Below are positions 12,734 to 51,829 of a stretch of 64,000 bases of DNA, one piece after another; position 1 is the stretch's first letter, and every line of letters starts with the position of its first letter. The notes under the pieces were generated by a model. That model made no database searches. It had not been told where the DNA came from and saw only the letters and a program-made list of their open reading frames with translations. Source of the DNA: an uncultured Acidobacteriota bacterium (GTDB lineage: Bacteria > Acidobacteriota > JAQAZP01); assembly GCA_963836075.1 (NCBI GenBank), contig CAWIIB010000009.1, positions 1,728,001 through 1,792,000 of the forward strand. The letters are read 5' to 3'. A program made the translations under genes and the position numbers.

Positions 12734-14527
12734 ATGAAACGTCTTCTGATTCTGCTTGTAATGTTCACCTTCGCGGCCATCGGCGCCGCGGACACCATCT
12801 ATGTCCCGGACGATCACGGGACGATTCAGGGGGCGATCGTTGCCGCCCTGGACGGGGACACGATCATCGTCCGCCCCGCAACCTACGAGGAGAACATCGA
12901 CTTCCTGGGCAAGGCCATCACCGTGAAGAGCGAGCTGGGACCGGAGCTGACGATCATCGATGGCAGCGATCCGGTGAACCCCGACTATGGAAGTGTCGTC
13001 ACTATGATGAGTGGCGAGGGTTTGGATTCGGTGCTTGACGGATTCACCCTCAGCTATGGGACCGGAAACTACTATCCGGATTCCGACGAGACTGCAGGCG
13101 GAGGAATTATGATCGAGCTCTCCTCCCCGACGATTATCAACAATATCATCAGCGAGAATACGGCGGACGGTGGCGCCGGAATAAATTGCTATGACAATTC
13201 TTCCCCCGTCATCTCCAACAACACTTTCACGGCCAACGCTGCCGGGGGTGGTGGGGGAGGGATCTTTTGCTGGGAAGGGTCTTCGCCGCTGATCACGGGC
13301 AACACCTTCACCGAAAACACGGGCCTCGAAAATGGTGGCGGGGCGATTGGCTGCTACCTTTTTTGCTCCCCGACGATCGCCAACAACGTCTTCACACTAA
13401 ACGCCGCCACCGGAGAGTATTCCCTTGGGGGGGCGGTCGGTTGCATTGGCCAATGTGATCCGGTGATCAGTAACAACGTCTTCGACCTCAACTCCTCGCC
13501 AAACGAGGGCGGTGCGCTCGCCTTCTTGACGGCCTGCGATCCGACCATCGAGAACAACATCATCACCAACAACTCGGCAGGCGACGCTGGCGGCGGAATG
13601 ACGTTCTGGACCGGATGTCATGCGACCATCACCAACAACCTGATCAGCGGCAACACATGTCAGGCAGTTATGGGTAGCGGCTGGGGTGGCGGTATTAACT
13701 CTTACAGCAGCATACTGACCCTGGCCAACAACACGATCACCGGGAATTCTGCCGAGCTAGTCGGCGGTGGGATTAGCCTCTTGTCGAATTCAGCCGCCAC
13801 CATCAGCAACACAATCCTTTGGGCCAATGATGCACCCGTAGGATCTGAGGGCTATGTTGGAGAACAAGACGAACTCACCATCAGCTTCTCCGACGTGTTT
13901 GGCGGACAGGACTCAATAAAACTTGATCCAGGCGCTACTCTCAACTGGGGCGCCGGGATGATCGACGCGGATCCGCTGTTTTATCTTCCAGCAGACGACG
14001 ACTACCACCTGCAGCAGGATCCCTGTCAGCCGGGGGTGGTCAACCCCTGCGTGGACGCGGGGAATCCGTTCAGTCCGATGATCGCGGGGACAACCCGCAG
14101 CGACTGCGGTCCCGATGTGGACCCCGTGGACATGGGCTATCACTACGCCCTCCTCGATACGGTCTCGGCAGATCTCGGCTGCGTTCCCGATTCTGGCGTG
14201 CTGCCCTTTGCCGTCCAGCTCAGCGTGACCCTGGGCAACGTCGTCGACTACGACCGAACAATCGCCGGACGGATCAACCTGACCCTGGCCGGCGGTGCGA
14301 CCTACCAGAGCTGGCGGGCGGGATACACCAACCTCGGACCGAACGAAATGTTCGTCACCACCTGGATGCAGACGCTGCCGGCGCTGGGAAGCCTGGTGGG
14401 GGGCAATGTCTTCGTACTTCACGCCGAAGACGTGACGCCGCCGCCATTCAACCAGCCGCCATTCCCGCCGTCGGGCGACATCGACACGGCCAGCTGCACG
14501 GTGACGGGGGAGGCATCGACGAGATAG
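12734..14527 (+). CDS. secreted right-handed parallel beta-helix protein with conserved C-terminal module A
   Basis: Signal peptide; TIQGAI..A.DGDTI.V.P.TY.E start; repeated GGGI...P.I.NN.F..N turns; ADPLF...DYHL...PCVDAG; C-terminal module shared with genes at 27369 and 49770. Confidence 0.88.
   Translation: MKRLLILLVMFTFAAIGAADTIYVPDDHGTIQGAIVAALDGDTIIVRPATYEENIDFLGKAITVKSELGPELTIIDGSDPVNPDYGSVVTMMSGEGLDSVLDGFTLSYGTGNYYPDSDETAGGGIMIELSSPTIINNIISENTADGGAGINCYDNSSPVISNNTFTANAAGGGGGGIFCWEGSSPLITGNTFTENTGLENGGGAIGCYLFCSPTIANNVFTLNAATGEYSLGGAVGCIGQCDPVISNNVFDLNSSPNEGGALAFLTACDPTIENNIITNNSAGDAGGGMTFWTGCHATITNNLISGNTCQAVMGSGWGGGINSYSSILTLANNTITGNSAELVGGGISLLSNSAATISNTILWANDAPVGSEGYVGEQDELTISFSDVFGGQDSIKLDPGATLNWGAGMIDADPLFYLPADDDYHLQQDPCQPGVVNPCVDAGNPFSPMIAGTTRSDCGPDVDPVDMGYHYALLDTVSADLGCVPDSGVLPFAVQLSVTLGNVVDYDRTIAGRINLTLAGGATYQSWRAGYTNLGPNEMFVTTWMQTLPALGSLVGGNVFVLHAEDVTPPPFNQPPFPPSGDIDTASCTVTGEASTR
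14156..14527 (+). repeat. C-terminal module A, copy 1
   Basis: ADLGCVPDSGVLPFAV...WRAGYTNL...WMQTLPALGSLVGGN...AEDVTPPPFNQPPFPPSGD...CTVTG. Confidence 0.85.
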
Positions 14528-49296: not shown

Positions 49297-49608
49297 ATGG
49301 ACGAGTATCCGATGATCCTCACCCTGGAGCAGGCAGCGGAGATGCTCCAGCTCTCCGCCCGGACCGTGCAGCGGATGGTGAGCAAGGGCAAGATGCCTGG
49401 GCGCCGCATCGGCGGCCAGTGGCGTTTTGACCGTGACCAGCTGCGGGAGTGGGTGCGTGGCGCTGATGTGGAGCCGGCAGCGGCACCGGTGAGCCAGGCC
49501 GAGCTGATCGCCCGCGAGGCCCGGCGCATGGGTGTGGACCTGCCCCAGACGCTGATCGACCTCCAGCAGGCGGCCATGAAGCGGCAGGCGGACCGCACGG
49601 AGGAATAG
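49297..49608 (+). CDS. helix-turn-helix (excisionase/BldC-like HTH_17) DNA-binding protein
   Basis: ILTLEQAAEMLQLSARTVQRMV..GKMPGRRIGGQWRFDR..L.EW; GGAGG RBS. Confidence 0.88.
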   Translation: MDEYPMILTLEQAAEMLQLSARTVQRMVSKGKMPGRRIGGQWRFDRDQLREWVRGADVEPAAAPVSQAELIAREARRMGVDLPQTLIDLQQAAMKRQADRTEE

Positions 49609-49769
49609 CATGTGTTACCCCGAAGGGGGGTAACCTTCGGGTTTACTTTGCTCCAAAATTGCGGTATGTATAACCCAACGTGTACTGTTTCAATGGGATA
49701 TTGCCCATCGTTGAAATAGTTAAAATCCTCGGTCAACGTCTTTTTTACGTATCAAGGGAGGGATGATTC

Positions 49770-51785
49770 ATGCGGATGTTCTCACACGATCACCTCCGGC
49801 GCCCACTCAGCGCCTTGGGGGTGGTGATGCTTCTGGCCCTTCTCGGCGCGGCACCGGCCGCGGCCAGCGTGGAAACACTCTCCAACGCGTTCGCCGCCGC
49901 ATCACCGGGAAGCGGGTACGACACCCTGCTGGTGCTGGATGGGCAAAATATCTACACCGGTGGCTTAACCCTTCCCCCGGGTAACCACTGCATCCTGGGC
50001 AATGGAGCGGTCCTCAACCTCCAGGGCCTGAGCGTGGAAGCGGGCAACGGGGTGATCCTCGACGTCAGCGGCTGCTCCTTCACCAACGGCGTCATGGGCC
50101 TGGATTTCACTGCCGGTTCCATGGGCCACGTGGAGTGCTGCAATTTCATCGGCAACAATGACGGCCTGCGGGCCTGGGAAGGTTCGTCGGTGACCCTGGT
50201 CAGCAACAACTTTGTCGACAACAGCCACTACGGGGTCTACCGCCACGAGTATGGCGGGGTGTTCAACGCCTACAACAATGCCTGGGGCAACGCGGTTAAC
50301 GACTACGTCTACTATTGCCCCGGGTGAGGCGGCGGATCGGACTCCGCTGAGAGTCCGGTGCCGGGTACCGGCACCATTTACGCTGATCCGCTCTTCGCCA
50401 TGGAATACATCAACGATTTCCACCTCACCGCTCCTTCCCCCTGTGTGGGCACCGGCCTCGACAGCTACGACATCGGCGCTCTGCCGTTCACCGTCCGCGC
50501 CGCAGCCCCCGGCGGCATCTCTGCCACACCGGTGGGGGTCACCGAGGACTGTGACCTCGCCTGGACCAACCCGACCCACGACACCGACGGAAACGTCCTG
50601 GCATCGCTGGACGGGGTCAACGTCTACCGCAACGGCGAACTGCTGACCACCCTGTCCCCGGCCTCGCCCGGCCAGGCGATGAACCATACCGACACCGTTC
50701 CCATCTCCGACTGGTGCCGCTACACCGTTTCGGCGGTGAGCGGGGGCACTGAAGGGCTGCGCGGCAGCCACGCCGAACTATGGGTCGGCGGCGACGTCAC
50801 CGGGATCCTGGTCTGGAACCTCGGCACGCAAAAGGAGAACGGTGAAGCGGTGCGCGACGCCATCCTCAGCCGGTCCTATGACAACGTTGTGCGCCTGGTG
50901 GAACAGCCTGGCCGCTACCCGCTCTCCGACGGCGTGGACGCTGTCTTCGTGCTCCTCGGGGTCTACGGATGGAACTACGTCCTCGGAGACACCGAGAGCC
51001 AGCTGCTGGTGGACTACCTCGACATGGGCGGCAATGTCTACATGGAGGGGAGTGACACCTGGTATTTTGATCTGGCCACGCCCGTTCACACCTACTTCAA
51101 CATCAACGGTGTCGCCGACGGCAGTGCCGACTGCGCCACCGTGCGCGGTGCGGCGGGCACCTTTACCGACGGGATGAACTTCACCTACACCGGCAACAAC
51201 TCCTACATCGACCACCTGGCCCCCATCGGCTCGGCGTTCACCATCCTGAGCAACGTCACCCCGGCCTATGACGCCTGCGTGGCCTACGACAGCGGCAGCT
51301 ACAGGACCATCGGCTGCTCCTTCGACTTTGCCGGCCTCAGCGGCGGCTCGGCGAGGGAAACCCAGGCGGAGCTGATGGCCGCCATGCTCGAATTCTTCGG
51401 CCTGACCAATGGATATGTGGACACCCTGACGGTGGAGCTGGCCTGCACCCCGGACAGCGGCACGCTGCCCTTTGCCTTCCAGCTGGCGGTGTCGATACAG
51501 AACCTCACCGACCAGTCGCGGGTGATGGCCGCCCATCTCGATGTGGTTCTCGCGTCGGGCGCCTCCTATCCCAACTTCCGCGCCGGCTACACCACCATGG
51601 GGCCCGGCGAGACGTTCAGCACCAGCTGGATGCAGACCCTGCCCGCACTGAGTGGGCTGGTGGGAGCCAACCTGATGGTCCTCACCGGCCAGGATGTTAC
51701 GCCTGCGCCCTACAACCAGCCGCCGTACCACCCCTCGGGCGATACGGACGCCACCGCGGTCGAACTGTTCGGCATCCATCCCTAG
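49770..51785 (+). CDS. secreted beta-helix/FN3 protein with in-frame TGA (putative selenocysteine in CxxU) and C-terminal module A
   Basis: ORFs 49770-50327 and 50358-51785 share a frame and are separated only by TGA 50325-50327: YNNAWGN...YYCPG-U-GGGSDSAESPVPGTGTIYADPLF...DFHL..SPCVGTG. Confidence 0.75.
50328..50363 (+). promoter_or_regulatory. putative bacterial SECIS element
   Basis: Stem ATCGGACTC (50336-44) / GAGTCCGGT (50351-59), loop CGCTGA beginning 17 nt after UGA with G at position 2; lower stem CGGC/GCCG. Confidence 0.68.
51420..51785 (+). repeat. C-terminal module A, copy 3
   Basis: VELACTPDSGTLPFAF...NFRAGYTTM...WMQTLPALSGLVGAN...GQDVTPAPYNQPPYHPSGD. Confidence 0.85.
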
Positions 51786-51796
51786 TTCGCTACGCC

Positions 51797-51829
51797 GCCG
51801 GCCCGGCATTCCCGTCGGGCCGGCATTTT
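51797..51829 (+). terminator. intrinsic terminator
   Basis: gccggcccggc attccc gtcgggccggc followed by atttt, just after the stop codon. Confidence 0.6.

Follow-up and report, generated by a model that had tools for sequence, protein, structure and literature searches.

A TGA codon separates two open reading frames (ORFs) at positions 49770-51785 of the window, the whole 64,000-nucleotide stretch of an uncultured Acidobacteriota genome that was analysed. The question raised by this locus is whether the TGA terminates a gene or is decoded as selenocysteine (Sec, U). The upstream ORF starts at ATG 49770, comprises 185 codons and closes with ...NDYVYYCPG-TGA, its TGA occupying 50325-50327 (+). 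Past this codon, the frame stays open for 485 more codons to a TAG at 51783-51785. When read through, 49770-51785 (+) is a single frame of 672 codons with one internal TGA and a product of 671 residues, and the junction, with TGA taken as U, reads ...YYCPGUGGGSDSAESPVPGTGTIYADPLFAMEYINDFHLTAPSPC.... The TGA would thus encode residue 186, as the frame, the orthologues, the contigs of sequencing runs, the homologues and a phylogenetic tree suggest. The first residue of the C-P-G-U motif, Cys183 (codon TGC, 50316-50318, +), is at least 90% conserved across the family described below. A preliminary description of this locus had noted two ORF calls in one frame split by a single TGA at 50325, and a C-P-G-U motif followed by DFHL..SPC on read-through; both are confirmed by the frame and its translation. 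It had proposed one exported beta-helix selenoprotein with a C-x-x-U motif, a reading supported in its main point by the Sec machinery of the organism, by retention of the TGA and by homologues with Cys in its place. The segment 49770-51785 is very probably a genuine selenoprotein gene.

Conservation of the TGA and exchange of stop and Cys forms

Among 401 genomes of the phylum that were searched, only the source genome (G000) and the genome of a second species of the same genus (G002) yielded the gene. With this query no orthologue was detected in G001, which also belongs to this genus and has a completeness of 91%, and a tblastn search of plasmids gave no match to the gene. The G002 gene likewise has a frame of 672 codons with a single TGA, and its junction reads CPG-U-GGGSD. 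The two genes share 81.6% nucleotide identity over their whole length, with 552 of 672 codons identical and no frameshift, and the proteins are 79% identical over the N-terminal 247 residues. The G002 locus has the same neighbours as the locus in the window: a helix-turn-helix (HTH) gene precedes it, and an FG-GAP repeat gene on the opposite strand follows. Orthologues had been expected to keep the TGA, and the codon is conserved in this one; it has itself been seen in these two species only.

One short metagenome contig carries the identical sequence including the TGA. Mapping over 50325 had been put forward as a check for a base-call error. Contigs of three public sequencing runs (X1, X2 and X8) cover the TGA, and among the differences listed none falls at 50325-50327. 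A G>A change was seen at 50328 in the public-run contigs. No RNA run was among those listed for this stretch. Beyond 50331, one divergent X8 contig no longer aligns; matched to the window by eye, this contig lacks 3 nt between the TGA and codon 191, so that the frame is kept, and it has GCG in place of the window's GTG at 50358, which leaves no start codon there.

In a collection of 5.8 billion proteins, the upstream half is represented by 12 full-length cluster representatives of 183-185 residues (62-96% identity). All 12 stop at the junction, 11 of them with the end CPG and one with SPG. The downstream half occurs in this collection as separate proteins of 475-476 residues starting M/VPGTG. 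For two N-halves and two C-halves, the lengths of the longest contigs coincide (4714 and 48306), and these halves are probably neighbours on the same contigs.

Residues 1-260 of the read-through product were then used as query in a HMMER scan of 1.84 billion cluster representatives. At E<=1e-3, 207 matches were obtained, and the best 150 of these 207 were classified; the counts that follow refer to them. The junction is the end of the protein in 46 representatives (35 end C-x-x, mostly CPG; 9 end C-x, mostly CG; one ends with C and one without Cys), it is spanned in one stretch in 57, and the remaining 47 are fragments or partial matches that were left unclassified. Many homologues had been predicted to be annotated as ending in CPG. 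This is the case for 11 of the 12 close clusters, and in 45 of the 46 junction-ending representatives a Cys lies 0-2 residues before the stop, i.e. within the last three residues.

Homologues with Cys aligned at the TGA had likewise been anticipated. Cys is aligned to position 186 in 19 of the 57 spanning homologues, including the closest ones (P0021, P0024, P0025, P0027, P0028, P0038, P0041, P0042, P0058, P0062, P0068, P0081, P0087 and P0099). The closest ones read Y..xC-G-C, C-S-C, C-D-C or similar, with a Cys aligned to the TGA, after which the cap PxPGxG..DPxF..DFHL..SPC continues in one chain. A Cys homologue at the Sec position, one of the recognised marks of a selenoprotein, is thus available. 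Trp occupies the aligned position in 5 of the 57. One protein, P0026, spans the junction as ..ENCPGWGS.., while its nearest relatives, P0046, P0072 and P0088, end ..ENCPG; its Trp may stem from mutation of TGA to TGG, or from a source pipeline that translated TGA with another genetic code.

The history of the two states was followed on a maximum-likelihood tree of 74 N-terminal domains, built from the columns before the motif only. Excluded from it were proteins of more than 800 residues, the duplicate P0007 and rows in which the first matched stretch fell short of covering query residues 60-176. By parsimony, the stop-after-Cys state changes 12 times on this tree, and at least 6 of the changes are forced by branches with support >=95 in the Shimodaira-Hasegawa-like approximate likelihood ratio test (SH-aLRT). 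Sister pairs include P0025 (Cys) and P0052 (stop), with a support of 98. Cys is the classical counterpart of Sec, and Sec/Cys replacement classically shows itself in a stop and Cys changing places repeatedly at a single conserved position. With 6 or more such exchanges, a single ancestral gene split is ruled out as the cause of the pattern.

Selenocysteine machinery and candidate SECIS elements

The preliminary description had expected Sec machinery in the genome. In the source genome (6.2 Mb in 10 contigs, 64% G+C), profile searches detected SelA with 488 bits and the C-terminal wing domain of SelB with 70.7 bits, the latter inside a frame of 698 codons. One tRNA-SeC(tca) is located on contig C1, and two selD genes are present, each of which contains one in-frame TGA. 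The genome thus holds selA, selB, selC and selD. SelA was also found in G001 and G002. The two selD copies lie at C4:17381-18301 (+) and C9:892330-893256 (-), and their selenocysteine insertion sequence (SECIS) hairpins are nearly identical, with a 9-bp stem and a GGU loop 20 nt after UGA. The C4 copy is on a 50-kb contig and, given an assembly contamination estimate of 4.6%, may be from a second strain.

A crude genome-wide codon-score scan, which missed selD and the candidate gene itself, gave further genes with an in-frame TGA: a Prx with FTFVUPTE (C9:2241709, +), two thioredoxin-like proteins with WUPNC (C9:2706564, -) and UGGC (C9:1104159, -), and a possible membrane protein with GGASUGCS (C9:941586, +). 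The Prx gene and the WUPNC gene have GGUC loops 17 nt after UGA, and the UGGC gene has an AGUUG loop 16 nt after it. The accepted Sec genes of this genome thus carry GGUC, GGU or AGUUG loops 16-20 nt after UGA. TGA is at the same time the commonest stop codon of the genome, closing 2485 of the 3710 open frames of at least 400 codons (67%). Read-through at 50325 must therefore be site-specific.

The bacterial SECIS (bSECIS) model as given in section 5 of PMC13188914 comprises a loop of 3-9 nt, a stem of 4-16 bp, G in the first two loop positions, a spacing of 16-37 nt and a minimum free energy of -7.5 kcal/mol or lower. Hairpins within these constraints are found 3' of the UGA in both species, against a chance rate of about 10% at random TGA sites. 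With a simplified model without bulges, 298 of 3000 random TGA sites on contig C9 qualified, and 29 of 3000 reached -14 kcal/mol or better. The window hairpins are therefore above chance, though not unique.

Hairpin 1 (50336-50359, +) is a 9-bp stem, ATCGGACTC/GAGTCCGGT (50336-50344 / 50351-50359), with the loop CGCUGA and a free energy of -12.8 kcal/mol. The preliminary description had reported this stem and placed the start of its loop 17 nt downstream of UGA, with G among the first two loop nucleotides; the structure exists with this spacing, the G being at loop position 2. In its place, G002 has the qualifying hairpin GCCCC-GGA-GGGGC, with the loop 20 nt after UGA and -7.9 kcal/mol. Hairpin 2 (50357-50375, +), which was absent from the earlier account, is GGUGCCGG-GUA-CCGGCACC with an apical GGUA and a loop 36-37 nt after UGA. 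It is stronger than hairpin 1 (-14.6 kcal/mol), partly overlaps it, and also overlaps the codons of the conserved P-G-T-G. In G002, hairpin 2 is identical from 50358 on; position 50357 is A, so that the stem has 7 bp and not 8, and the energy is -11.3 kcal/mol. Hairpin 2 has a GGU(A) apex like the accepted Sec genes but lies farther off, whereas hairpin 1 is at the right distance with another loop. A SECIS 3' of the TGA is plausible, with hairpin 1 and/or hairpin 2 as the candidates.

Predicted domain continuity across the TGA

Residues 33-185 (49866-50324, +) form the rungs of a right-handed beta-helix according to Pfam, AlphaFold2 (AF2) and Foldseek. The Pfam scores of the window protein remain below the gathering cut-offs, with 25.1 bits for Beta_helix PF13229, just under 25.9, and 13.9 against 23.6 bits (E 0.037) for NosD PF05048. 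PF13229 is a precomputed Pfam domain in 9 of the 12 full-length orthologue N-halves. Residues 1-260 were modelled with AF2, with U entered as C and 66 family sequences. The mean predicted local distance difference test (pLDDT) score was 86.3 and the predicted TM-score (pTM) 0.80; the rungs reached pLDDT values of 89-98 and consist of repeated short strands, stacked as in a beta-solenoid. The best Foldseek matches were PL6 alginate lyase (E 6e-4), AlgG, pectin and pectate lyases and NosD, with low TM-scores of 0.3-0.4. When the family profile was compared with solved structures, the only match was NosD (E 0.0057).

The helix is completed by a C-terminal cap after the TGA, residues 187-240 (50328-50489, +), with the motifs P-x-PG-x-G, DPLF, DFHL and SPC, as delineated by homologue alignment and AF2. 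Cys225 of SPC is invariant in the family alignment (A4). In the model, pLDDT stays between 80 and 93 over residues 181-230 (80 for 181-190, 84 for 191-200 and 93 for 201-210), and strands are predicted at 177-183, 190-193, 209-211 and 216-219, i.e. on both sides of the TGA. AF2 handles the sequence on the two sides as one domain in this model. A paralogue elsewhere in the window had been cited for a continuous cap; 12734-14527 is indeed a Beta_helix/NosD protein in which GAGMIDADPLF..DYHL..PC follows in one chain.

Upstream of the rungs, residues ~1-32 (49770-49865, +) make up a predicted signal peptide, with a conserved RR (HLRRPLSAL), a hydrophobic helix (11-26 in AF2) and AAA/S, as judged from AF2 and a heuristic. 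The cleavage site and any dependence of export on the twin-arginine translocation (Tat) pathway are predictions. The twin arginine of HLRRPLSAL (window 49794-49802, residues 9-11) is kept in most close orthologues, and Tat-dependent export would be possible.

The cap is followed by a linker and a possible FN3-like module, residues 241-340 (50490-50789, +). The FN3-like domain of the preliminary description could not be confirmed, as residues 241-340 gave no Pfam match and an AF2 pLDDT below 50. In the ESM Atlas, the downstream ORF gave weak look-alikes only (DUF4960/fn3, score 0.81), taken as a lead only. The middle domain, residues 341-547 (50790-51410, +), was delimited by paralogue comparison and received no confident fold from AF2. 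An AF2 model of residues 240-671 from 8 sequences had an overall pLDDT of 41, with only the last 120 residues well modelled. These correspond to a C-terminal immunoglobulin (Ig)-like beta-sandwich, residues 548-671 (51411-51782, +), placed by AF2 and genome search, with pLDDT values of 75-89 and CARDB-like and macroglobulin-like Foldseek matches. Four paralogues on contigs C1 and C9 (L004, L005, L006 and L007) share 42-49% identity with residues 341-671 in their C-terminal parts; their N-terminal heads are a Porphyromonas-type peptidyl-arginine deiminase (PAD_porph) in one case and an S8 subtilase in three.

The C-terminal domain of ~120 residues, ending ..NQPP(Y/F)xPSGDT.., recurs in about 200 open frames of the source genome, e.g. 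at window 14147-14497. It matched no Pfam or NCBIfam model, including those of the type IX secretion system (T9SS) type A sorting domain (TIGR04183 / PF18962), and is presumed to be an undescribed lineage-specific sorting or anchoring module. Two matches to this domain contain internal TGA codons, one in C4:26634-26987 (+) and two in C1:1736789-1737133 (-); these may represent pseudogenes, overruns of the alignment or additional recoded genes. Taken alone, the downstream half matched no Pfam family and had no signal-peptide-like start by a crude heuristic, in agreement with the preliminary description. As the paralogues have a head before the cassette and the downstream half is without a signal peptide, the downstream half alone would be a headless cassette.

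Competing explanations and known systems

Several observations weigh against decoding of the TGA as Sec. Because TGA makes up 67% of the stops, its occurrence in two species is by itself weak evidence. DNA was seen for these two species and close strains only; in the other orthologue clusters and in the 45 distant junction-ending clusters, we infer the stop codon and the downstream frame. The covariation of hairpins that had been predicted for homologues could not be demonstrated, and hairpin 1 does not stay in register in G002, 3 of its 7 core pairs being disrupted there. The spacing of hairpin 2 is at the upper limit of the allowed range, and its conservation is equally explained by the P-G-T-G peptide, which is conserved also in the Cys forms. 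Neither hairpin has a GGUC loop at +17 to +20 as in the SelD, Prx and thioredoxin-like SECIS elements of this genome. Rfam gave no match on 50200-50500 with E values up to 10. Comparison of synonymous sites between G002 and the window revealed no unusual conservation around the TGA; the gene-wide synonymous difference is 31% and several other segments of the gene are more conserved. The earlier statement that the downstream half is without a clear ribosome-binding site holds for the window, with only GAGAG before GTG 50358, and fails for G002, where a Shine-Dalgarno-like GGAGGGG lies 5 nt before the GTG, as for a separate gene. The signal-peptide heuristic discriminates poorly, being positive in 135 of 200 domain-bearing frames (68%) and in 162 of 400 controls (40%).

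These points bear mostly on the possibility that two genuine genes adjoin at the TGA, a 185-residue secreted beta-helix protein and a 475-residue protein starting at GTG 50358 (or at an ATG at codon 211), perhaps with translational coupling. Gene callers annotate two proteins in every source, the TGA would be the commonest ordinary stop of the genome, the G002 sequence before the GTG would serve as its ribosome-binding site, and neither Rfam nor the synonymous sites gave a SECIS signal. Against such an arrangement, the stop falls exactly at the conserved Cys of unbroken homologues and exchanges with it repeatedly on the tree, and the homologues, the paralogue in the window and the AF2 model all place the cap beyond the TGA within the beta-helix domain. 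The second gene would encode a presumed sorting cassette with neither signal peptide nor head, unlike all 4 of its closest paralogues; its ribosome-binding site in the window is weak, and the related X8 contig has GCG for the GTG together with the in-frame 3-nt deletion. We regard two adjacent genes as unlikely.

Read-through could also be site-specific without involving Sec, through near-cognate decoding of the TGA as Trp or Cys or through another recoding signal. The spanning homologues with Trp, among them P0026 in the same C-P-G context, would fit this explanation, as would the lack of a GGUC-type loop in both hairpins. The organism nevertheless possesses a complete Sec machinery and several other Sec genes, the closest unbroken homologues have Cys at the aligned position, and the Trp of P0026 may equally have the origins mentioned above. 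Moreover, both C-x-x-U and C-x-U are among the Sec motifs listed in Table 1 of PMC13188914. Decoding of this kind appears very unlikely. A recent nonsense mutation or a sequencing artefact in a once-continuous Cys gene would need one base change only, from TGC or TGT to TGA. A second species, whose gene shows 81.6% nucleotide identity, has the same TGA between two intact halves, 12 of 12 full-length orthologue clusters stop at this point, and the contigs of three runs list no difference there. A pseudogene or sequencing error, extremely improbable on these grounds, is excluded by conservation.

The best explanation as a whole, in which we have high confidence, is a single gene whose UGA is decoded as Sec by means of a stem-loop and whose product is an exported beta-helix protein of a Sec/Cys family. 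The UGA at 50325-50327 would be decoded by SelA, SelB and tRNA-Sec of the organism, directed by a stem-loop just 3' of it, hairpin 1 and/or hairpin 2. The predicted product of 671 residues would be exported and would comprise the signal peptide, a small right-handed beta-helix and C-P-G-U on a loop after the last rung, followed by the helix cap, the linker, the middle domain and the C-terminal Ig-like module common to about 200 proteins of the genome. Because Sec insertion competes with the release factor, termination at the UGA probably also gives some 185-residue product. The gene would be a member of a broad family of small secreted beta-helix proteins that have, at this position, either Cys (C-x-C) or a stop right after C-x or C-x-x (the putative Sec forms). 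Tentatively, Cys183 and Sec186 might constitute an extracytoplasmic redox-active selenylsulfide or a metal/chalcogen-binding site.

We are somewhat inclined to go further and to see here a large unrecognised selenoprotein family, apparently the first on a beta-solenoid scaffold and exported. Its Sec forms (C-x-U and C-x-x-U, all mis-annotated as proteins of ~180 residues) would outnumber the Cys forms about 3:1 among the nearest cluster representatives, and the Cys/Sec dyad at the end of the helix, beside the cap with the invariant Cys225, would be an extracytoplasmic selenol-based redox or metal/chalcogen site employed by sediment bacteria. The decoding mechanism appears to be the known one, and the fold, the cellular location and the family appear to be new.

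Comparison with known selenoproteins is consistent with this. Among the 119 prokaryotic selenoprotein families and subfamilies of a 2026 catalogue (PMC13188914, Table 1), there is no beta-helix or NosD-like entry, although the supplementary family tables could hold one. The word 'helix' is absent from the main texts of that review and of the deep-Sep and BSepDB papers, a literature search found no relevant beta-helix selenoprotein, and no model of NCBIfam release 20 matches the read-through protein. According to PMC13188914, nearly all known bacterial selenoproteins are cytoplasmic and most characterised ones have a thioredoxin-like fold. Thioredoxin-fold CxxU selenoproteins (SelW-like, AhpD-like and GrdA) share with the window protein the C-x-x-U dyad, which in them forms a redox-active selenylsulfide (PMC13188914). 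Their fold and cell compartment are entirely different, and redox activity of the window protein is presumed. The extracytoplasmic selenoproteins catalogued in PMC13188914 resemble the window protein in being exported or in the envelope, in having C-x-x-U or C-x-U outside a thioredoxin fold, and in having been predicted by the same logic, from TGA, Cys homologues and a SECIS-like hairpin. Their folds are unrelated to that of the window protein; the most comparable entries are envelope proteins, for instance the FCYXU-type TonB receptor and UshA-like selenoproteins.

The closest relatives are unnamed small secreted beta-helix proteins of the Cys form (P0025, P0027, P0038, P0042, P0068 and P0081), which have the same domain with 29-38% identity (alignment A4). 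They show the signal peptide, the rungs, the Y..xC-x-C loop and the PxPGxG..DPxF..DFHL..SPC cap in the same order as the window protein. They differ from it in the Cys at the TGA position, in C-x-C and not C-x-x-U spacing and in their C-terminal modules. Two Cys forms, P0021 and P0033, carry T9SS type A sorting domains (TIGR04183), which the window protein does not match. No named NCBIfam family was found for the Cys forms. NosD, of the NosDFY copper/sulfur maturation system (PF05048; PDB 7o0y, 7osf), is also a periplasmic right-handed beta-helix. The match of the window protein to it is far below the family cut-offs, NosD has neither Sec nor the C-x-C loop, and it works with an ABC transporter, genes for which do not flank the window locus.

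If the gene is what it appears to be, a secreted beta-helix family with a Cys-Sec pair would bring a new fold, and the envelope or outside of the cell, into selenium biochemistry, and would add a sizeable family to selenoproteome catalogues. Dozens of public protein clusters appear to be truncated at the Sec codon, with their second halves called orphan proteins, which would amount to a systematic annotation error. The peptide CPGU and the RNA region 50325-50376 offer direct targets for a test.

The features around the frame suit one transcription unit. A Shine-Dalgarno-like GGGAGGG (49756-49762, +), read from the sequence, lies 7 nt before ATG 49770. A scan of the locus detected no promoter-like and no terminator-like site between the two halves. 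Terminator-like hairpins lie on both flanks: one at 49619-49641 (+), after the upstream HTH gene (49297-49608), would mark the 5' boundary of the unit, and an intrinsic-terminator-like hairpin of 11 pairs followed by ATTTT lies after the TAG at 51797-51824 (+).

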